A stretch of 64,000 nucleotides of DNA from a virus, in UHGV virus genome UHGV-0072281; one strand, 5' to 3'. The translations under genes were made by a program, and so were the position numbers. Below are positions 11,383-46,797 of this stretch, in pieces (positions within the stretch are counted from its first letter, which is position 1; each line of letters opens with the position of its first letter). The notes beneath the pieces are model-generated. The model saw nothing but the letters and a program-made list of their open reading frames with translations, was not told the DNA's origin and searched no databases.

Positions 11383-12234
11383 ATGATTGACATTTATACA
11401 GATTACGCCGCCGTTCTTACCGTCAATCGTTCGGAGGAACGTGCTGCACCGTTTCTGGATTTAGTCACGCTTTGCATGGACTACGGATACGACGTTGCGT
11501 TAAGTGATGTATACTGGCAACCGTCTTCTGACCCGGCTGACGAAACGGTTCGATTAGAAGGCATTATCGTTAAGTGTGCGGTAGCGTTAGGTAACCGTCT
11601 AGGGATAGCGTTAAATCCCCAGGAAGTTTACCATAAACCCAAAGAAACCGTACGTATTTTGGACGGTATTACTTCCAAGTTTGAAGAGTTTGAAGACACC
11701 GATACGCTTTATGGTATTGTGATGTCGGGCGAGACGCCAGAATACATTCTGGAAAGTATCTGTCGTTACGTTTACGGCGATGACAATATCCATTTCGAAG
11801 ATTTGGTTGTTCGGGTGTCTCCTCGTGTAATGACAGTGATGAGGAACTACCTGTCTTCTGTGACCGTAGACGAACAATTAGCGGCAGGTAACGACAGACG
11901 TTTGTCACGTATCGCTGATTACCTTCGTTTATATCCTCAAAACCCCTCAGCGTTCGTATTCCTTAACTTACCAGACCTGCCTGATTTGACCGTGGTTCAG
12001 CAGTCGCTGGTCTTCGATGTTGAAGACTACTCGGAAGCCGAGCTGTTGGTAATGTATGCAGTGGGCTTAACGATTATCGATAACGAGGATTACGAAGATG
12101 CGTATGGTGCGTTATCAGAGAACCTGGAGAAGCTCAACAACGAAGGGTTAAAACCGATTCCTATCTTGCAACCTGCTCTGGAAAGCTTGAAGGAGATTTA
12201 TAAGGTAGCGGAGGAAGACAATGACGAGATTTGA
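11383..12234 (+). CDS. hypothetical protein
   Basis: ATG 11383 preceded by GGAAAAGG; 283 aa; 14-nt overlap with next gene. Confidence 0.7.
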   Translation: MIDIYTDYAAVLTVNRSEERAAPFLDLVTLCMDYGYDVALSDVYWQPSSDPADETVRLEGIIVKCAVALGNRLGIALNPQEVYHKPKETVRILDGITSKFEEFEDTDTLYGIVMSGETPEYILESICRYVYGDDNIHFEDLVVRVSPRVMTVMRNYLSSVTVDEQLAAGNDRRLSRIADYLRLYPQNPSAFVFLNLPDLPDLTVVQQSLVFDVEDYSEAELLVMYAVGLTIIDNEDYEDAYGALSENLEKLNNEGLKPIPILQPALESLKEIYKVAEEDNDEI

Positions 12235-13522
12235 GTTTCTGGTGGCGGCTTGTAAAGCTGAAGCCTGGCGTCGTTTAGTGTGGCGTATTGCAATATTCAA
12301 CATGTCAGTGTTCCCGTCGAATCGTGAAGAACCTGAAGCGTTCGATATTACGTATATCGACGGAATGCCGCACTATTACGCGGTAGAAGATGGGAAAGGG
12401 GATTGGCAGCCCATTACTGATGGCGTGAAAGACCAAGAACTGTTTATTCCCGAAGAACAGTTTGAGTTGAAAGTCGATGACTACCCAGGATTAGAAGGAC
12501 CGATTCCTACTACCGTAGGACGTTATATTTTTAACTGGGTTGTTATCTGGTATGCGTTTGGTACACGCTTGCCGTATATGGGTATTTCACAAAACCCGTT
12601 AGAGTATCGTAAAGAGATGCACCGTCGTTGTTTGGATCACGAAACCGATGAACCTGAGAACGAAGGTGCTATTCGTCCGAGCATGATAGAACGCTTTGTA
12701 AGCGGCTTACACGAACTTGCACCGTTAACCGCTGGTATTGCACCAACAGGTACACTTAGAAGCCTTACGGTGCATCCTGATGCGTATAAAATACGTGATG
12801 CGTTGCTGTTAAAGCATAAGGACGAGTTAGACGACCCAGCAGTGATTGTTAAGATAGAAAAAGCACTGGACGAACTGGATAAACAGTGGCTGTCAGGTGA
12901 CCAATCTATCGAGTTCTATAACTCACCAAAATCACGAATGCGTCGACGTAAGTTGATGCTGATGTACGGGATTGAATCGTCTTTCCAGGAAGGGGGTAAC
13001 TATACGTTAATTCCTAACGCACTGGTGGAAGTTGATAAGGCGGGAATGGATAACCTGGTCGCGAAGTTTAACTCTATTCGCGAAGGTTCGTTCTCGCGTG
13101 GTGCAGAAACCGCGAAAGGTGGGGAACAGGTACGTATCATTCAGATGATTTTCCAGAACCACCGAATCGTTGCAGGTGATTGCGGGACGAAACTCACGCA
13201 CCCTGTGGTTATCACAAAAGACAACGTAAAACGTTACGTTGGGATGAACGCGATGGTTAATGGGAAGTTAACCTCCTTGACGGAAGAGTTTTTGAATAGT
13301 CAGCTAGGGAAAGTTGTGCGTCTACGCCGACCCATCTTATGTCAATACGGCCACATCGACTGCTGTACTGCGTGCTCCTCCGAAGCGAAAGGTGAAGAAC
13401 CTCGCGCTATCGCGGCGGATATTTCGTCAGCGTTCTCTAACGTTATGTCCGTGGCAATGGCCGCAATGCACGGTAAAGAAACCGTCGTTCAAGAATACGA
13501 TCCGTTGATCCATATCACCTAA
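12221..13522 (+). CDS. hypothetical protein
   Basis: 433 aa; GAGGAAGA SD before ATG. Confidence 0.8.
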   Translation: MTRFEFLVAACKAEAWRRLVWRIAIFNMSVFPSNREEPEAFDITYIDGMPHYYAVEDGKGDWQPITDGVKDQELFIPEEQFELKVDDYPGLEGPIPTTVGRYIFNWVVIWYAFGTRLPYMGISQNPLEYRKEMHRRCLDHETDEPENEGAIRPSMIERFVSGLHELAPLTAGIAPTGTLRSLTVHPDAYKIRDALLLKHKDELDDPAVIVKIEKALDELDKQWLSGDQSIEFYNSPKSRMRRRKLMLMYGIESSFQEGGNYTLIPNALVEVDKAGMDNLVAKFNSIREGSFSRGAETAKGGEQVRIIQMIFQNHRIVAGDCGTKLTHPVVITKDNVKRYVGMNAMVNGKLTSLTEEFLNSQLGKVVRLRRPILCQYGHIDCCTACSSEAKGEEPRAIAADISSAFSNVMSVAMAAMHGKETVVQEYDPLIHIT

Positions 13523-13534
13523 GGATTATTAGTA

Positions 13535-14044
13535 ATGGCAACCAAAGACATTTCTACCCAAGATGCTCGTCCCGCTGCTGTTAAGCGCTCCGCAGAAGCG
13601 GCAGTAGCTTATAGCCAAGATGACTCTTATCAGGTAAACCTTATTGCTGCGCAGTTAGACGAAGCAGGGAATACCATCGGTACCAACAAACCGAAAAACA
13701 CGTCGGAAGCAGACGACGCTTTCCGTAAACTGCATCAGTCTTTCCGTAGCCTGTTTGAACTGCGTGGTCAGGCGTTTATCGACGCTTTTAACGTTTTCGT
13801 TGCTGCTGCGATTAAACACAAGCGTAGCATCTTCTATTACCCGAATGTGAACTACCACCTGGATTGGTTCCACGATTCTGCTGAACGTGAAACCTACGTG
13901 GTGTTTATCAACATGCTGGTACGTTTTGCTAACTCTCAAGATAAAGCAAACTTCGCACAGCGTGACAACGTTAACCGTCTGCTGCAACGCGTAACTGACC
14001 CAGAGCTGCAACAGCTGCTGGCGTACTGCTTCAACGCGGCTTAA
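13535..14044 (+). CDS. hypothetical protein
   Basis: 169 aa; AAGGA SD; followed by terminator. Confidence 0.8.
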   Translation: MATKDISTQDARPAAVKRSAEAAVAYSQDDSYQVNLIAAQLDEAGNTIGTNKPKNTSEADDAFRKLHQSFRSLFELRGQAFIDAFNVFVAAAIKHKRSIFYYPNVNYHLDWFHDSAERETYVVFINMLVRFANSQDKANFAQRDNVNRLLQRVTDPELQQLLAYCFNAA

Positions 14045-14050
14045 TAAGCA

Positions 14051-14096
14051 TTACCCTACTCCCGAGAGGAGTAGGGTAGCTTTTATTTTTTCTTAG
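14051..14096. terminator. bidirectional intrinsic terminator; copy 1 of a duplicated 47-bp module
   Basis: Hairpin taccctactcc-cgaga-ggagtagggta then gcttttattttttc; stop codon of minus gene (TTA 14093-14095) inside module. Confidence 0.8.
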
Positions 14097-15874
14097 TGGG
14101 TGGTTTTGATGTATTCAAACGGATCGGTAATAGCCTCACCTTGACGACGTAAGAATGCTTCTAACACAACGTTCTTATCTGGCAGTAAGAAGAAGTCTGT
14201 TGCAATTTCCATTGCATTAACACGCCCTGCGGTAAGGTTAATCCCTACACGACGTCGTACTTCTTCAGGAACACCATGAATACTCAGTAACTCGATTAAC
14301 GTTGTTTCACGAGACTGGTTCATCATGTTCGTTGCAGAAGGATACGCCTGGGTTAAATCCGCATCTGCGGTTTGCCCACGGAATGCAGTGTAGAAATCAT
14401 CAAACTCTTTAATGATTCCTCGCAGGCCGTTTTCCGCGTTCATACACGCAGTTAACGTAACAATCCAACCGTCCGTACCGATAACCTCTTCATCGAAATC
14501 ATTACGCATTGCACTACCTACACAACCGATAACTAATCCTTGTTCATAAAGGTAATAGGTGTAAGCAATACAAATACGTTTTGGTAACGAAGGGAAGATA
14601 TCGTACATCGAATAACCCGCCAGTACGGAAATTGCTGAAGACAAGTCGTTCGTCTTTTTATCCAACAACACAATCATCAGGTTATCGAAGATGTTGTAAA
14701 CGCAGTATTCGAGCGGGAACTCTTTCTGTGCTTTTAAGTGCCATTCCAGTTTCTCCTCGTAAGGCAGCTCTGGCAAGTCTAACTTGTTTAAGCCCAGTTC
14801 AGTTTCCAGAATAGCGTTAAGTTTGTAAGAAGGACGTTGACCTTCGTGAACCCGCAGTGAACGGAACAGACACATTGCATCCACACAGTAGAACGATGCG
14901 GTACAATAAAGTACGTGCCACTGTTGTGAAGGCGCTTTGGTCAGTGATTTCGATTCCGTTTTCTTCGATGCTTCGTCTTTCTTGAAGTAAACACGACGGT
15001 ATTGTTTCGGTACATCAGGATGACAAAAGACGTCTTCCGGCGGAATCCCTGCGGCTTCTAGTGCTTCTAACATGCGTGAAATATCGAACTCGTGGTTCCA
15101 TGCGACTAATAAGTCAGGTAGACGAGGGTGAATCTCTTCAAACATGCGTTGAATACAGCAGCCGGAGTTTAAGCATTCGTAAACGAAGATTTTATATCCG
15201 GCAATAACGTCTTTGATTTCGGTCTTAGAATTGCCTTCCTTGTCTTTGCCACGAAAAGCAATTTTAGAAAGTAACTCCTTCGCACGTTTAATTAGTCGCG
15301 CTTCGAAGTTCTCACGACCGCAACGCGCAACGTAGTCTTTCGTTGCGAAGAAATGAATTTCGTCATCCAAAACAAAACTCATAATCCAAGGGTCTCGAGA
15401 TTTGTCTTCTTCTCGAGTTTCCACGTCGTATACGCAAATACGGTTAGGTGAAACGGCGTTAGGCCATTTCTTTATATATCTTTCTTTAATCCAGCTGGTG
15501 ATGGGTAAGTCAGCCCAGTAAACGTACGGAGAGGTACAGACTTGACGTAATGAACGTTTTTTGTCAGGAAATCTTGCTCCTAGACCCATCTGGATAGTTT
15601 GTGACATCATCACATCCGTGGTCATGTATTCCTGACACTTACTGCGTTCTTCGTATTCTTTCTTTTCTTGATGGTTACGGTGTTGTGGTAAAGTAATGTA
15701 GATAGGCCGTTTCAGATTTTCACGCATGACGATACGCGGGATGAATCTGCCATCTTTAGTATGGACGACCTCCTTTATGAGCACGAAGTCGTTTTCTTTC
15801 TGCTGATCGGTTGCGTACGAAACAAATTTGCACTCTTTGGCAATAACGTCTTCCGGTGCGTAATAGTTATTCAT
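14093..15874 (-). CDS. family-B DNA polymerase-type 3'-5' exonuclease domain protein (possible N-terminal piece of a split DNA polymerase)
   Basis: 593 aa from ATG at 15874; Exo I-like ICVYDVETRE, Exo II-like WNHEFDISRML, Exo III-like YCVDAMCL in order; no YGDTDS-type polymerase motif seen. Confidence 0.5.
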   Translation of the reverse strand: MNNYYAPEDVIAKECKFVSYATDQQKENDFVLIKEVVHTKDGRFIPRIVMRENLKRPIYITLPQHRNHQEKKEYEERSKCQEYMTTDVMMSQTIQMGLGARFPDKKRSLRQVCTSPYVYWADLPITSWIKERYIKKWPNAVSPNRICVYDVETREEDKSRDPWIMSFVLDDEIHFFATKDYVARCGRENFEARLIKRAKELLSKIAFRGKDKEGNSKTEIKDVIAGYKIFVYECLNSGCCIQRMFEEIHPRLPDLLVAWNHEFDISRMLEALEAAGIPPEDVFCHPDVPKQYRRVYFKKDEASKKTESKSLTKAPSQQWHVLYCTASFYCVDAMCLFRSLRVHEGQRPSYKLNAILETELGLNKLDLPELPYEEKLEWHLKAQKEFPLEYCVYNIFDNLMIVLLDKKTNDLSSAISVLAGYSMYDIFPSLPKRICIAYTYYLYEQGLVIGCVGSAMRNDFDEEVIGTDGWIVTLTACMNAENGLRGIIKEFDDFYTAFRGQTADADLTQAYPSATNMMNQSRETTLIELLSIHGVPEEVRRRVGINLTAGRVNAMEIATDFFLLPDKNVVLEAFLRRQGEAITDPFEYIKTTH

Positions 15875-15945
15875 GTTTTCACTCTCAAATCTAGCGGCTG
15901 CTATACTGATTTGTGGGTAATGTAATTTCTCAAAAGGAAACACAA

Positions 15946-17280
15946 ATGGGATACTGGCAAAATCACATTGCATCAGTTGCGGATGCAAAGGTTGTAGCCG
16001 CAGAATCGATTAAATTCCAAGATAAAAAGAAACTCGCAGAACTGGCAGACATTATTGCTAAATTTCGTGCAGCCGGAGACTTTAGTCCGGCCGGTTACGA
16101 GAGTTCTGGTGTTTCTGATTGGGTATTTAAAACCAATGGTATTAGCATTAACTTTAAGAACGGTAGCGAACTCGGTTTATTCGACGTTGCCTTTGCAGGT
16201 GTAGAACCACCTAAACTGGACGCTAACAGTCCGGTAATTGCGTCAATGGCGCGTGCACTGTACGCAGGTAATAAAGACCTGGACATGTACAGTAAGTTCA
16301 TTAAAGAAAACGAACTGAACAGCAGCATTGACGATTCCAGTGCGAAAATCAGCGGCGACTTGAGCAAAGTCAGTTCCCCGCTTTACCTGACCCCGGTGCT
16401 GTTGGAGAAACTGGAGCTCACCGATTTGGAGGTTGCTGCGGTAATCCTTCATGAAGTCGGTCACGTTTATTATTACTTCCGTACGCTGATGCGTACCGTG
16501 GTAACGGATTTACTGGCAGACGCTGCGGCTAACCGTATCATGGAAACCGAAGACCCGGCTGTTCGTTTACGTGTGGTTAAAGACGTTGAACGAATGCTGA
16601 ACACGAAAGTGAATCAGCCAGAGACCATCTGCACTGAGTACAAGAAAGAAAACGTCTACATGCACCTGGTAACAGATTTGCTGTTAGACCGTCCGTTCAT
16701 TAGCGGTAGTCAAGGCTTTGCAAACCGTACCTGGGAACGTGCTGCTGACGACTTCGCTGCCCGCTTTGGTGCTGCCCCGTACTTAGCTTCTGCACTGTAC
16801 AAAATGGAAACCAGCCCGTTCTATCTACTGCGTAACTCGTCGTATATGAACATGGGTGTCCATTTGACGATTGAGTTGTTCCGTGTGACTGCGCTGATTG
16901 CCCAAGCTGCCATTCCGATTCTTCCGGTTATCTCTGTTACGTTTGGGATGATTCTGAACGACCCAGATAACACCATCTACGATCCGCCGCAGGAACGTTT
17001 TGAAGCGATGCGCCGTACGCTGGTAGAAGAACTGAATACCATCAAAGACAAAAACACGAAAGCGGCTAACGAGCAACGTAAACGTATTCTGGATGGTATC
17101 GCGGTAATTGATCGAATTCTACTCACGGTTAAAGACAAAGATAACCTGTATCAGTTTATCTGGAAGACGCTGACACCGAAAGGGCGTCGTGACCGTGCTG
17201 CGGTGGATTATCAGCGCGCTATCGGGAAGTATATGTCGAATGACCTCCGTATCGCATCTGCCATGTTTAACGTCGATTAA
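15946..17280 (+). CDS. HExxH zinc metallopeptidase-like protein
   Basis: 444 aa from ATG 15946 (AAGGAAA SD); motif AAVILHEVGHVYYY. Confidence 0.4.
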   Translation: MGYWQNHIASVADAKVVAAESIKFQDKKKLAELADIIAKFRAAGDFSPAGYESSGVSDWVFKTNGISINFKNGSELGLFDVAFAGVEPPKLDANSPVIASMARALYAGNKDLDMYSKFIKENELNSSIDDSSAKISGDLSKVSSPLYLTPVLLEKLELTDLEVAAVILHEVGHVYYYFRTLMRTVVTDLLADAAANRIMETEDPAVRLRVVKDVERMLNTKVNQPETICTEYKKENVYMHLVTDLLLDRPFISGSQGFANRTWERAADDFAARFGAAPYLASALYKMETSPFYLLRNSSYMNMGVHLTIELFRVTALIAQAAIPILPVISVTFGMILNDPDNTIYDPPQERFEAMRRTLVEELNTIKDKNTKAANEQRKRILDGIAVIDRILLTVKDKDNLYQFIWKTLTPKGRRDRAAVDYQRAIGKYMSNDLRIASAMFNVD

Positions 17281-40996: not shown

Positions 40997-41521
40997 ATGC
41001 AAATTCGTTTTAGTCCACCGTGGGAAGTTCAGCCTAACATAGATAAAGGCGCTGCCGTTAAAAGTGTAGAATTGCTCCAGGCAGGGTTCTTTAACTGGTT
41101 ATATGACTGTCCGAATGGTTTCAGTTCTATCATCTTACCTGAAGTAAGTCGTTCTGCTATTTATAAAGCGTTAATGGCTCCGCCTGTACTTCCAGGTAAA
41201 TATTATGATCAGGTGTTACGTCTGGTCGAATCAGGCGAAAAGGTTTCCCTTGACGATTTATATGGGGAAACAATTCCTTGTCGCTTACGCTGGGTCTTTA
41301 CCCAACGTGGTGATACGATTGTGGCGTCATTTGCAGAAGCGAAGTCCGGTTCGGGTTTTTCTTCGGGTGAAGACCACGCTGCGAAAAAGATGTTCTGCGC
41401 AGAACTTTTTAAATATATGCGTACCAAGACTCGCGTCGTGGATGACTGCTTCAGTACCTCAACGCAGTTTGCCGCTAACGAAGTGCTGACGCAATTATAC
41501 GCATGTCATTTATCTCATTAA
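40997..41521 (+). CDS. hypothetical protein
   Basis: 174 aa; GGAG SD 9 nt upstream. Confidence 0.75.
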   Translation: MQIRFSPPWEVQPNIDKGAAVKSVELLQAGFFNWLYDCPNGFSSIILPEVSRSAIYKALMAPPVLPGKYYDQVLRLVESGEKVSLDDLYGETIPCRLRWVFTQRGDTIVASFAEAKSGSGFSSGEDHAAKKMFCAELFKYMRTKTRVVDDCFSTSTQFAANEVLTQLYACHLSH

Positions 41522-41533
41522 GGTATTAAACAA

Positions 41534-43819
41534 ATGAAAGATACCCGAATCTCTAATTTAGAGAAACTCGTAGAAGCCGGTACTAGTCTGGCCCAAAACG
41601 TCATCGGCAACAACACCGCCAGCGAAATGTGGAAGACGATTGTTGCAGGCGAGTCCGTACGTAGCAACGCAAAAGTATTTGGCGCTCTGCGTGACGAAGC
41701 ATCACAGCACTATGCCAACGCTTTTGGCGGCAAGAAAATGTCTCATGCTGCGACCGTCGCTTCCGCAATGATTCTGGGCGTAGCTAACCACGGTAAAGAC
41801 CTGCAAGAACGTGTTGCCCAGGAATACGCTAAGCCGGAATTCCACACCAAGTATAACCTGGATATTGGTATCCCTGGTGCGCAAGGTGGTGATTGGGGTC
41901 GTGAGCGTATGGTTGTTGCTCAGGAATACTACAGCAACAAAGACTACGACAAAAACTTGGGCCTGACCTGGACCCTGAACGTACGTGCTCTGGAAACTCA
42001 GTCCAAGTTTGCTGAAACACTGTTCCCGACCATTACCGTTGACACCAACGATGTTGGTATTACCGTACGTACTAAAGTGACTACCGTTTCTCGCGGTATC
42101 ATGAACGCGCTGCTGAGCAAAGACGTCGTTGAAGATCATCGTCGTCCGCTGCACAACGCACTGACTGACCACACCGTTCTCCAGGACGAAGCGATCAACA
42201 TCGTTCCTTACGTAATGGAAACCGGTGAAAACCAGGAATACTTCGTAAGCGAAGATCTGGTTCCGAACGAAAAAGTTCGCCTGGGTCGTGTACCTCCGTA
42301 TCCGACTAACTACCTGAGCTTTGCAAACGACACGCTGAACCTGTTCCAGCTGTCTGCGCATCCGGGTATCGTTCAGGAAGGTTACGATGAAACTGATGAA
42401 ATCGCACCGGGTTGTGCTCTGGGCAGCCTGCTGATTTCTGTACGTAAACCGGCCGAAGAAGCGAAAGCGGGTAAATTCATCAAACTGCACGTTCGTGACA
42501 TGCAGTTCGCAACCTTCCAGCGTCCTGCTGAAGGTGACGGCCGTGAACTGGTTCTGCAATTCCGTCGTACCGCGTTCTCTCTGAATGCGAAAACCACTGA
42601 CTGGAAAGGCGACGCTATTCCGGCACTGCAAGCACTGGGCCAGAACTCCTACACCCTGCGCTACGTTATCACCATCACCATGTCCCTGTTCACCAGCGGC
42701 CAGTTCGGTGGTAAAGTAGACATTTCCGGCCACAAACTGGAAATCGAAGGTCTGTACGATGCAACTGGTAACAAAGTTGATACCAAGTCTGGTACCGGCA
42801 AAGTTATCCTGGATGGCCTGAAACTCGAACTGATGGGCTGGCGCTTCGATGGTACTCGTACCAACGAAAACCGTCGTACCCAGGGTCTGCTGCTTGACCC
42901 AATTTGGGAACAGGAAAACTACAAACTGCAATACGGTTCTCCGATTCTGACCAAGTCTCCGGTTGGTGTTGAATACGACGACACTGAACGTCTGGATGAC
43001 CTGATCTCTGCGGTGAACATCCGTAACGAACAGCTGGCTATTACTCAGACGCTGTCTTACACTGAAGCAGTACGTAACGCAGCCGCTGCGATGATCACTC
43101 CGTGGGACAAACCGGCTATCCGTGGTCTGGGCCGTCACTGGGTTGCTCCGTGGTTCAAAGAGTCTGACTACAAAGTCGATGAAGTTGTTCAGTCTCTGGA
43201 TACCAAAGAAGCGCTGATCAACGCTCGTCAGGGTCTGTTGCAGCGTATCGGTAGCCAGGTAACTCAGGCTATCCAGGATTCTCGTTTCATTCCTGCACTG
43301 CGCCTGCTGACCGCTGATCCGGACATTCTTCCGAAAGTTATTATCGCAACTGACGAACCGACTGCATCCATGCTGCTGCTGGTTCAGGGCGACCAACGTC
43401 TGCTGGGCGACCGTTATGAATACGAAGTCGTTACCACCAACGATGACCGCTGGCGTATCTACAACGCAGCTGACGATTCCTGGACTCGTCGTCTGCAATG
43501 GTTCCTGAAAGTTCCGACTGCGGACGATGGTTCCTACTGCGTACTGAACTGGGGTAACCACTTCTGGTCTCCGATCATGGTTACCAACATCAACATTCAG
43601 CGTAACGGTTCTACTTCTAAAGAACTGGCTGTACAGCCGCGTAACGCGCATATCTGCCACTGCCCGATCACTGGTCTGATTTGGGTTAAAGGCATCACCA
43701 AACTGGTTGAAGAAAAACTGGCTTACAACGTTTCTGTAGAACAGAACGGCCAGAAACAAACCGAAGGTGGTGTAGCAGGTAACCTTGCTGTCGAAGGCAA
43801 AGCTACCGCTGGTAAATAA
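41534..43819 (+). CDS. candidate major capsid protein
   Basis: 761 aa, size class of phiKZ-type major capsid proteins; strongest optimal-codon bias in window; AAGG SD; strong terminator downstream; S/A/G-x-E motifs in N-terminal ~100 aa; no homology check possible. Confidence 0.45.
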   Translation: MKDTRISNLEKLVEAGTSLAQNVIGNNTASEMWKTIVAGESVRSNAKVFGALRDEASQHYANAFGGKKMSHAATVASAMILGVANHGKDLQERVAQEYAKPEFHTKYNLDIGIPGAQGGDWGRERMVVAQEYYSNKDYDKNLGLTWTLNVRALETQSKFAETLFPTITVDTNDVGITVRTKVTTVSRGIMNALLSKDVVEDHRRPLHNALTDHTVLQDEAINIVPYVMETGENQEYFVSEDLVPNEKVRLGRVPPYPTNYLSFANDTLNLFQLSAHPGIVQEGYDETDEIAPGCALGSLLISVRKPAEEAKAGKFIKLHVRDMQFATFQRPAEGDGRELVLQFRRTAFSLNAKTTDWKGDAIPALQALGQNSYTLRYVITITMSLFTSGQFGGKVDISGHKLEIEGLYDATGNKVDTKSGTGKVILDGLKLELMGWRFDGTRTNENRRTQGLLLDPIWEQENYKLQYGSPILTKSPVGVEYDDTERLDDLISAVNIRNEQLAITQTLSYTEAVRNAAAAMITPWDKPAIRGLGRHWVAPWFKESDYKVDEVVQSLDTKEALINARQGLLQRIGSQVTQAIQDSRFIPALRLLTADPDILPKVIIATDEPTASMLLLVQGDQRLLGDRYEYEVVTTNDDRWRIYNAADDSWTRRLQWFLKVPTADDGSYCVLNWGNHFWSPIMVTNINIQRNGSTSKELAVQPRNAHICHCPITGLIWVKGITKLVEEKLAYNVSVEQNGQKQTEGGVAGNLAVEGKATAGK

Positions 43820-45021: not shown

Positions 45022-46797
45022 GTGTTTAAAGATGCAATCAGAAAGCTTAAAGAGGATGGCAAAATAGTACCCTTTAACCGAGCGATTGCGGAAGGTGTCG
45101 GTTATACCCAGGCCAAAGATGGTATACACGAACGTGTTCAGATTATCTTGAAACGTGAGCTGGATTATCATCCTGTTGATAATCCGCGTGTTCCTGAAGG
45201 GCTGGCTGTATTAGGTGTACGGTTAATGTCGCCGTTTGAAACGTTCATCTATAAGCTGTCTCGTTCTGAGAGCAGCAGAATGGATAGACGCCGTGGTGTG
45301 ATGTCCATTGCGAACACCGATGCGTATATGGTCATGTCAACATTCCGTATTCCAGGAGATTCTCGACCGATCTCAAGACCGATTAACTTACCCTTTATCC
45401 GTCGTGGTGGTTTAATGAACTATTACGGTACGACGTATCACGTTGCGCCGGTTATTCACCAGCCAGGTATCTGTCGCGAACACGGTGGGGTATTTGTTAA
45501 CTTTGACTTTAAACGTAAAGCCTCGTTGAAATTCTGTAAGCAACCTGTCCGTGTGTTAGTCAACGGTAAAAAAGAGGAGCTATTCTTACCAGGAACCAAA
45601 AACCTGTTCAAAGCGAAGAACGCAACACATCCCGATACTGACGAGAAACCGTTAATGTATTGGTTGTTCGGACGTTACGGATTTAAAGAAGCGATTAAAC
45701 GCTATACTGGTGTTGACGTAGAAATTTATCCATCGTTTAAGATCCCAGAACTCGATCTCAACGAGAAAGTTGTAATCAGTTCCGGTGAATCGAAATATAA
45801 CCGTTCGATAATGTACGCGGTTGTCGTACCCGCAGAAGCATTGCCGAACGTGGATAAAGTCGGTTGGGATCAAAACGAGCATTTATTGCTGGCTGCAATT
45901 GCTGCGTTCTTCAAAGCTGCTCACTACTATTGCAGTAAACAATCTATTAAGAACGGTAACGTCACACCGCTGCCGCCGCTGTTTACCGCAATTAACGAGT
46001 TAGCGATGGAAGACGATATTGCTAATCTGAACTCTGCTCCGATTTGGCGTGAGATTCTGGGAAGAAGTATCGTAGGACTGAAACCTTCCGATATTGAGTT
46101 AGCGCACAGTATGGCGAAACACTATACTGAATGTGATCGCTATGTTAACTCAACGTTCCGTGCAGAACTGAAGATGACCGATCCCGACATTCCAGACGAT
46201 ATGGATATGTTTGATTTCTTCTGGTATGCAACGAAACTGATGGTACGTACCCGTTTGACCAAACAGGGCGACATTCCGTCGATGTACGGAAAACGTTTAA
46301 CCGTAACTGACTACTTACTGTTAGGTGACCGTGGGTTTACACCAACGGTAGCGGCTATTCGTTTCCAGCTGGGACAAACGGAGAACCGTTCGCCGGAATC
46401 CTGCGCGAATATGATTCGTAGCGCACTCAATAAAGAAATTGTCACGAGTCTGGTACTGCGTAATATCACCGGTAATGGCGGTGTAAGTTATTTTAACGCA
46501 TCAACAGAATCCATGGTGTTAGGAGTATCCACACACGCGATCAGTCAAACTGAAACGGAATCTAAACGCAACAGCAAGGGCGGTAAAACGGTTAACCTTA
46601 ACGACCGTACGAAACACGCTTCTGCATCGCATCTGGAGTGTGGTAACGTTTATTATATTCCGAAATCATCCCCGTTCAAATGGGGTGTCCTTAACCCGTA
46701 TATGAAAACTAACCGTCAGTTAGTGATGGTTCGTAATCCAAAACTTGACGAGTTAATTCAAGCAACTGAAGAAGACATTGCGAAGATTGGCCGTTAA
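45022..46797 (+). CDS. hypothetical protein (GTG start proposed)
   Basis: 591 aa; AAGGAG SD 6 nt before GTG 45022. Confidence 0.75.
   Translation: MFKDAIRKLKEDGKIVPFNRAIAEGVGYTQAKDGIHERVQIILKRELDYHPVDNPRVPEGLAVLGVRLMSPFETFIYKLSRSESSRMDRRRGVMSIANTDAYMVMSTFRIPGDSRPISRPINLPFIRRGGLMNYYGTTYHVAPVIHQPGICREHGGVFVNFDFKRKASLKFCKQPVRVLVNGKKEELFLPGTKNLFKAKNATHPDTDEKPLMYWLFGRYGFKEAIKRYTGVDVEIYPSFKIPELDLNEKVVISSGESKYNRSIMYAVVVPAEALPNVDKVGWDQNEHLLLAAIAAFFKAAHYYCSKQSIKNGNVTPLPPLFTAINELAMEDDIANLNSAPIWREILGRSIVGLKPSDIELAHSMAKHYTECDRYVNSTFRAELKMTDPDIPDDMDMFDFFWYATKLMVRTRLTKQGDIPSMYGKRLTVTDYLLLGDRGFTPTVAAIRFQLGQTENRSPESCANMIRSALNKEIVTSLVLRNITGNGGVSYFNASTESMVLGVSTHAISQTETESKRNSKGGKTVNLNDRTKHASASHLECGNVYYIPKSSPFKWGVLNPYMKTNRQLVMVRNPKLDELIQATEEDIAKIGR

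Follow-up and report, generated by a model that had tools for sequence, protein, structure and literature searches.

Is the 593-amino-acid (aa) protein encoded on the minus strand at 14093-15874 of a window from the virus genome UHGV-0072281 a free-standing exonuclease or one part of a DNA polymerase, and, if the latter, where has the polymerase been cut? The window analyzed is a 64,000-nucleotide (nt) stretch of this genome. The original prediction, made from the letters alone, had described a polymerase-type 3'-5' exonuclease that was either independent or the N-terminal part of a split polymerase; this observation is partly confirmed and its interpretation partly supported by the analysis that follows. 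The gene likely encodes the N-terminal subunit of a two-subunit, T4-related family B (PolB) replicative DNA polymerase from a phiKZ-like (SPN3US/Asesino-type) jumbo phage. We infer that the cut lies inside the palm, between the conserved NxSxET segment and the hairpin that precedes the fingers, and not between exonuclease and polymerase. The gene in question is the following.

14093-15874, minus strand: gene for the proposed N-terminal subunit of a split PolB (593 aa; SPN3US gp44 ortholog; PHROG 3011), from the open reading frame (ORF) list, PHROG and sequence identity

At the nucleotide level, the window shares ~73% identity with Salmonella phage SPN3US and with the Erwinia phages Asesino, phiEaH2, and Stratton. 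PHROG places its genes in families known from phiKZ-like jumbo phages; among them are fragments of the RNA polymerase (RNAP) beta subunit, a helicase, and a major head protein. Gene order around the 593-aa gene is that of SPN3US gp42-gp47 and phiEaH2 gp225-231; shared with SPN3US are an RNAP beta-subunit-family gene (PHROG 2962; gp42 homolog), a small ORF, the 593-aa gene on the minus strand, and an M48-like gene. Judged by nucleotide identity and gene content, the source is an SPN3US/Asesino-like, nucleus-forming, phiKZ-like jumbo phage. The 593-aa protein matches PHROG 3011, "DNA polymerase" (E = 2.7e-252; aa 3-583 on profile positions 2-573 of 576). It is 80% identical to its best phage match, a protein of Asesino, ~75% identical to the SPN3US group, and 99% identical to a database protein that comes from an Escherichia coli-associated assembly. 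By these matches it is the ortholog of SPN3US gp44. Full-length orthologs at 75-80% identity, with the same neighbors, are found in SPN3US, Asesino, and phiEaH2 (PHROG 3011; the "PolBrPhiKZ" group of Kazlauskas and Venclovas 2011), and the window protein shows no difference of substance from the SPN3US gp44 type. The gene therefore belongs to the known core of replication genes in phiKZ-like phages, whose split PolB has been in the literature since 2011-2012.

The family is broad. A homolog occurs in 302 phage records, nearly all of them phiKZ-like jumbo phages, with at least 80% query coverage in 287. A profile search against 1.84 billion representatives retrieved 2035 representative clusters at E ≤ 0.001 and 774 at E ≤ 1e-30; nearly all of the best 150 representatives are 550-620 aa long and are matched through the end of the profile. 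This bears on the idea that the ORF is a decaying, functionless polymerase fragment, in whose favor the absence of motifs B and C can be cited and nothing more. Against it, the ORF is intact, the 2035 clusters are of constant length, the catalytic residues are invariant, and a DNA polymerase is part of the conserved core of chimallin-encoding phages (PMC10299810). We regard decay as excluded because of this conservation, leaving it scarcely credible.

We then examined which parts of a PolB the protein contains. Its N-terminal and exonuclease regions were resolved into the following features.

15443-15874, minus strand: PolB N-terminal domain, first part, aa 1-144 (approximate boundary); predicted local distance difference test (pLDDT) 81-96 in an AlphaFold2 (AF2) model, Foldseek, and hhalign from aa 127
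14651-15442, minus strand: predicted 3'-5' exonuclease domain, aa 145-408 (approximate boundaries); hhalign 98.7%, PDB profile match, and PF03104 in relatives
15410-15430, minus strand: Exo I YDVETRE, aa 149-155 (D150, E152), aligned to RB69 FDIE, D114/E116
15068-15100, minus strand: Exo II WNHEFDISRML, aa 259-269 (N260, D264), aligned to RB69 WNVESFDIPY, D222
14867-14890, minus strand: YCVDAMCL, aa 329-336, a conserved block between motifs and not Exo III, aligned to RB69 VLDYIDLYKKF
14672-14707, minus strand: true Exo III YCVYNIFDNLMI (Y393, D397; YNIFD), aligned to RB69 YISYNIIDVYRV, Y323/D327
14522-14650, minus strand: PolB N-terminal domain, second part, aa 409-451 (approximate); hhalign, pLDDT 80-94

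The family profile used for the PDB search and the first alignment was built from 30 relatives, and conservation was counted in 151 sequences, comprising the window protein and 150 cluster representatives at 50% identity. Single-sequence searches of the PDB with the window protein (phmmer) gave no match. The 30-relative profile matched RB69 gp43 (E = 8.8e-8) in three collinear stretches corresponding to Exo I/II, Exo III, and motif A, and PF03104 was matched by 5 of the 30 relatives (best E = 4.1e-6). Comparison with T4-like gp43 by hhalign returned one alignment that placed aa 127-529 on RB69 residues 91-434 (probability 98.7%, E = 3.9e-16); it includes RGQTADADLTQAYPSATNMMNQSRETT opposite YKYVMSFDLTSLYPSIIRQVNISPET and PKRICIAYT..YYLYEQGLVIG opposite RB69 IKTWDAIIFNSLKEQNKVIP. 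An AF2 model built from the alignment had a pLDDT of ~90 for aa 1-455, and the top 22 PDB matches to it in Foldseek were all RB69 gp43 (E = 2.5e-13, ~470 columns). Profile comparison and structure prediction, both suggested with the original prediction, agree on a PolB exonuclease.

The alignments show that the protein holds a predicted 3'-5' exonuclease domain with all catalytic residues in place. D150 and E152 of Exo I are kept in 151/151 sequences; in Exo II, N260 is present in 145/151, and residue 264 is acidic throughout, with D in 145 sequences and E in the other 6. These two motifs stand as they were originally read. YCVDAMCL, which had been called Exo III, aligns to the LDYIDLYKKF block of RB69, and its D332 is replaced by Cys in 15/151; the real motif is Y393-x3-D397 within EYCVYNIFDNLMI, with both residues in 151/151. 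Conservation of the acidic motif residues among orthologs, on which the first assignment had been staked, is thus seen for D150, E152, D264 (as D or E), and D397 but not for D332.

The chain does not end with the exonuclease. Its remaining part contains the features below, which bear directly on the position of the cut.

14285-14521, minus strand: palm-domain fragment, aa 452-530; hhalign reaches aa 529 (RB69 434), and pLDDT is <50 when folded alone
14447-14473, minus strand: candidate pre-motif-A box DGWIVTLTA, equated by eye with the PolB G-x-x-V-x-x-P box (RB69 GAFVKEP)
14336-14365, minus strand: polymerase motif A DADLTQAYPS, aa 504-513, aligned by HMMER and hhalign to RB69 FDLTSLYPS
14300-14320, minus strand: NQSRETT, equivalent to RB69 N424-ISPET by HMMER and hhalign
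14096-14284, minus strand: family-specific C-terminal tail, aa 531-593, with conserved R541, G550, and N553; pLDDT mostly <60 alone

In motif A, D506 corresponds to RB69 D411, a metal ligand, and Y511 to RB69 Y416, the sugar steric gate. D504 was found in 151/151 sequences and D506 in 149/151, the other 2 having gaps; Y511 and P512 were each present in 145/151, with 5 gaps from truncated sequences. The motif A residues are kept in all full-length sequences among the 151 compared. Just downstream, N519 is present in 143/151 and T524 in 141/151. Upstream, W470, I471, T473, and L474 of the DGWIVTLTA box are nearly invariant in the 30-relative alignment. We read this box as the counterpart of RB69 391-401; hhalign sets the stretch opposite a gap in RB69, so the equation is one made by eye. 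The chain ends 68 residues past NQSRETT, and aa 456-593 have a pLDDT of <50 when folded alone (AF2). Neither motif B (K-x3-N-S-x-Y-G) nor motif C (D-T-D-S) is found in the 593-aa protein; absence of the latter had been correctly noted in the original prediction. The order of elements in the protein is thus shown to be N-terminal domain, exonuclease, second N-terminal segment, and first part of the palm with motif A, with the chain ending before the fingers. Being collinear with the first ~430 residues of RB69 gp43, with the rest of the polymerase on a separate protein in relatives, the protein fits the earlier suggestion of an N-terminal part of a split polymerase. The suggestion of a stand-alone exonuclease is not supported, as the protein also includes the N-terminal domain of a PolB and part of a palm in which motif A is invariant.

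The missing elements were sought in relatives. SPN3US gp18 (760 codons, 11544-13823) matches PHROG 2927, "DNA polymerase," and Pfam PF20286, "Divergent Family B DNA polymerase" (E = 6e-284). Its PF00136 match covers profile positions ~98-197 only, which we read as fingers plus motif B, and the gp18 family profile aligns to Pol zeta 1018-1098, the span from the pre-fingers hairpin through motif B. Motif C is SDTDS at 418-422, and AKHY at 496-499 aligns to RB69 KKRY. An AF2 model of the gp18-type protein (pLDDT 84.7) has RB69 gp43 as its best PDB match. When this protein is modeled by itself, motif C lacks an assigned beta strand, and the sole low-confidence stretch in the interior of the chain is the loop of motif B (aa 164-182; pLDDT <50). 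An hhalign comparison of the gp18 family with T4-like gp43 yielded a weak thumb/KKRY match only (probability 25%) and did not place the gp18 N terminus. These data show that relatives carry the fingers with motif B, the remainder of the palm with motif C and KxY, and the thumb on a separate gp18-type protein. The ~220 residues between the post-motif-B helix and motif C in the same model are confidently all-helical; this segment fits the "long multi-helical insert" of Iyer et al. (PMC7824862).

In SPN3US the gp44 gene (41224-43008) and the gp18 gene (11544-13823) are ~27 kb apart. No PF20286-type gene was found in the 64-kb window (tblastn with SPN3US gp18, best E = 0.3), and a six-frame regular-expression search of the window, covering KKRY as well as motifs A, B, and C, detected the motif A of this ORF, its other hits all lying in short or stop-interrupted frames. 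Of the polymerase motifs A, B, and C for which a second ORF had been proposed, motif A therefore proved to be in the 593-aa ORF itself, where it had been missed, and B and C are in no real ORF of the window. Extrapolated from the SPN3US gene order, the position of the partner gene would be ~15 kb outside the window, past its left end, on the same side of the 593-aa gene as the RNAP beta-subunit gene. The window phage and the gp18 homologs shared no contig record by which they could be paired. Two window ORFs were tried as the polymerase half and rejected: 41534-43819 (761 aa) is the major head protein, and 45022-46797 (plus strand), labeled "polymerase" in PHROG, is a homolog of phiKZ gp123, a non-virion RNAP subunit (E = 9.7e-18 to chain E of PDB 7OGP). 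The other large ORFs of the window are the head protein, RNAP subunits, helicases, and structural proteins.

The distance between the two genes is one of two facts that could favor an independent exonuclease or processing nuclease without a polymerase subunit, acting, for example, in recombination or host DNA degradation: the gene is ~27 kb from the polymerase-subunit gene in SPN3US and forms its own transcription unit, and all exonuclease carboxylates are intact. However, separated subunit genes are usual in these phages, as for RNAP and SbcCD (PMC5105663). Moreover, the whole N-terminal half of a PolB has been kept, including an N-terminal domain and a motif A that a free nuclease does not need, and the C-terminal module is kept to the end of the profile in nearly all of the best 150 representatives. 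We consider an independent nuclease very improbable.

A polymerase divided in this way would have a composite active site. Under the reading that we prefer, the two polypeptides would associate, probably in the phage nucleus, with the palm fragment and tail (aa ~452-593) folding onto the second subunit; we propose that the tail, aa 531-593, serves to dock the polymerase subunit. The active site would be completed by Y511 and by D506 together with D504, its remaining carboxylates (DTD) being contributed by the partner, and proofreading of the nascent 3' end would fall to the exonuclease domain, as it does in RB69/T4 gp43. Neither subunit would by itself be a polymerase. Three features are consistent with such mutual dependence, namely the disorder of aa 456-593 when modeled alone, the lack of a motif C strand in gp18, and the best fold match of both halves to RB69 gp43. 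That phiKZ-like phages carry exonuclease and polymerase on two polypeptides is stated in PMC3201878, and the enzyme has been cited as a "split subunit DNA polymerase" (PMC5105663). We extend the reading, with somewhat less assurance than for this gene but still on balance favoring it, to all phiKZ-like (Chimalliviridae-type) phages: motif A would come from the "exonuclease" subunit and motifs B and C from the "polymerase" subunit, the published assignment of both aspartates would be wrong, and activity would strictly need the heterodimer.

Several points weigh against a composite site. Iyer et al. (PMC7824862) call the exonuclease "a standalone protein" and draw a complete RRM-fold palm in the polymerase ORF. 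Kazlauskas and Venclovas (PMC3201878) assign the two catalytic aspartates, D229 and D398 of phage EL, to that ORF as well. The N-terminal ~100 residues of the gp18-type protein (aa 1-100) are well folded alone (pLDDT 80-95) and contain a beta hairpin with a nearly invariant G76-D77-R78; in the model, this hairpin is a conceivable source of the first palm strand. Pfam gave no match for the window protein, and the motif A stretch alone is not significant in HMMER (i-Evalue 96). Finally, the partner gene in the genome of this phage is inferred from relatives, since it is outside the window.

The published assignments and the well-folded gp18 N terminus together describe a different enzyme, in which the 593-aa protein is a proofreading exonuclease only, the partner has a complete palm with its own motif A, and DxDxxxxYP is a docking or DNA-binding remnant. 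The details of the EL protein do not suit it. D398 is the second Asp of motif C, and D229 (in QFADRDL) comes after motif B, the reverse of the PolB order. The D229 column holds F/Y/W/M/L across the family; a one-residue shift of the --add alignment brings it to a D/N position, which is Asn in the SPN3US clade. Upstream of gp18 motif B, 0/68 invariant columns are acidic in a 40-sequence alignment, and D77 is only nearly invariant, with H, E, or N in 3/40 sequences. To judge by these alignments, assigning motif A to the polymerase ORF, as has been published, fails for the family as a whole. In contrast, the catalytic Asp and steric-gate Tyr of the 593-aa family are present in every full-length sequence even though family identity is <30%, and the segment is collinear with RB69 motif A in the single 98.7% alignment. 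The motif A assignment draws its weight from this collinearity and conservation, not from its own HMMER score. We therefore hold the published model to be unlikely and continue to favor a cut inside the palm.

Comparison with other PolBs puts this cut in context. RB69/T4 gp43, a single chain, is the best sequence-profile and fold match of the window protein (identity ~15%) and shares with it the order N-terminal domain, Exo I-III, second N-terminal segment, and motif A. Unlike RB69/T4 gp43, the window chain stops soon after the NxSxET-bearing motif A region, and a 63-aa family-specific tail replaces the fingers, the second part of the palm, and the thumb; relative to RB69, the stretch from the GxxVxxP box to motif A is also ~19 residues longer in the window protein. 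T4-like and phiKZ-like PolBs are sister clades (PMC4889955). Among T4-related phages, the split gp43A/gp43B enzymes of Aeromonas phages 25, 44RR, and vB_AsM_ZHF and Acinetobacter phage Apostate are also cut downstream of motif A, and their 43A proteins (498-502 aa), like the window protein, comprise an N-terminal domain, exonuclease, and motif A. Phage 25 gp43A and gp43B copurify and are active (PMC2988022). Such enzymes, with motif A left on the N-terminal piece, are a precedent for the arrangement proposed here. The two splits nevertheless differ in position and gene arrangement. The 43A proteins of ZHF and Apostate are cut at the fingers tip, keep the first fingers helix, and end near RB69 residue ~505, whereas the cut in the window protein is ~50-70 residues earlier, before the hairpin preceding the fingers. 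The 43A and 43B genes are adjacent or parted by an inserted cassette (in Apostate, five small ORFs and a MobE homing endonuclease), whereas the SPN3US-type halves are ~27 kb apart and no 43B-like gene is near the window gene. DnaQ-type proofreading subunits such as E. coli epsilon have the DEDD carboxylates and the 3'-5' proofreading chemistry in common with the window protein, which differs from epsilon in having an Exo III of the YxxxD rather than HxxxxD type, in being threefold larger, and in carrying PolB-specific domains and motif A.

The phiKZ-like split was seen in all 150 top-scoring family representatives. No natural fusion of both polymerase halves was found among these best 150, the longer members having unrelated N- or C-terminal extensions. 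Three of them, P0186 (894 aa), P0229 (682 aa), and P0308 (699 aa), have either an acidic, helical addition of ~330 aa at the C terminus or one of ~130 aa at the N terminus, neither with any resemblance to a polymerase domain. Separately, Chryseobacterium phage MA9V-2 (L010, 1763-4429) has a T4-like polymerase gene annotated as a 495-aa "DNA polymerase II," whose chain extends through motif A and the first fingers helix and no further; the next ORF encodes a 369-aa "hypothetical protein" that aligned poorly to 43B. This phage may have another split or a replaced C-terminal half.

What this analysis adds to the literature is perhaps only the position of the cut and the resulting composite active site, which are of moderate interest to specialists. 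If motif A is on the "exonuclease" subunit, the labels "exonuclease" and "the" DNA polymerase are both incomplete, and a gp18-type protein expressed alone should be inactive. In three papers (PMC3201878, PMC4889955, and PMC7824862), nucleus-forming phages are described as having no detected sliding clamp or primase homolog. If the proposal is true, work on the replisome must treat the two proteins, perhaps with the SH3 protein encoded beside the partner gene, as one enzyme. The gene for such an SH3 protein (137 aa; PF20287, "SH3DP") is directly upstream of the PF20286 gene in relatives (L015, 2487-2900; L016, 2036-2449), an arrangement also noted by Iyer et al. 2021 (PMC7824862). The SH3DP protein may be a third subunit.

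The limits of the 593-aa gene and its surroundings were also assessed. Two further features were recorded here.

15882-15886, minus strand: Shine-Dalgarno-like GAGAG, 7 nt 5' of the ATG at 15874; read from the sequence, with a putative function
14051-14079, both strands: 12-bp G+C-rich perfect hairpin between the convergent genes 13535-14044 (plus strand) and 14093-15874 (minus strand), from a pattern scan

The stop codon is at 14093-14095 (minus strand). The longest form of the ORF begins at an in-frame TTG at 15988 and would encode 631 aa; the ATG at 15874 gives 593 aa. We take the ATG as the real start because the alignment of relatives begins at Met1, because gene calls in 4 independent assemblies also give 593 aa, because GAGAG is 7 nt upstream, and because the TTG form would run into the divergent plus-strand gene starting at 15913. 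The minus-strand ORF originally described at 14093-15874 is thus real, its ATG supported by orthologs and by the calls in the 4 assemblies. It is not the first gene of a minus-strand unit, as had been supposed, but a single minus-strand gene with plus-strand genes on both sides. The hairpin at 14051-14079 appears terminator-like on both strands, with a T run following on the plus strand and a weaker resemblance on the minus strand. The divergent neighbor, 15913-17280 (plus strand), encodes an HEVGH motif and has a Peptidase_M48 match below threshold (E = 8.6e-4; 19.6 bits against a cutoff of 20.3). Orthologs of its product are labeled virion structural protein (SPN3US gp45) or "beta-barrel assembly-enhancing protease."

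Some shorter members of the 593-aa family were traced to introns, located as follows.

L017, 5443-5864, and L019, 5409-5805: group I intron (RF00028) in ortholog loci

In these two metagenomic loci of the gene, the codons for W-I and V-T-L (equivalent to window residues 471/472) are parted by a group I intron (Rfam RF00028; score 51.4 bits, gathering score 50; E ~1e-10), and exon 2 encodes motif A and the tail. Group I introns typically target functionally critical sequence, and their position at the GWI/VTL codons counts in favor of the proposed polymerase subunit. The shorter family members of ~480-500 aa are first exons. About six more representatives of ~490-525 aa end near the profile position of the intron, and in locus L017 a 217-aa ORF follows exon 2.

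Lastly, the deposited proteins for both subunits in Salmonella phages SPFM1, 5, 6, 7, 9, 10, 12, 15, and 20 consist of exact 20-aa blocks in reversed block order (for example, LR535905.1, 198176-198604; proteins P0049-P0058, P0153, and P0180). A 20-aa block corresponds to a 60-nt FASTA line, and it looks as if the genome had been "reverse-complemented" line by line, which would make this a database artifact rather than biology.

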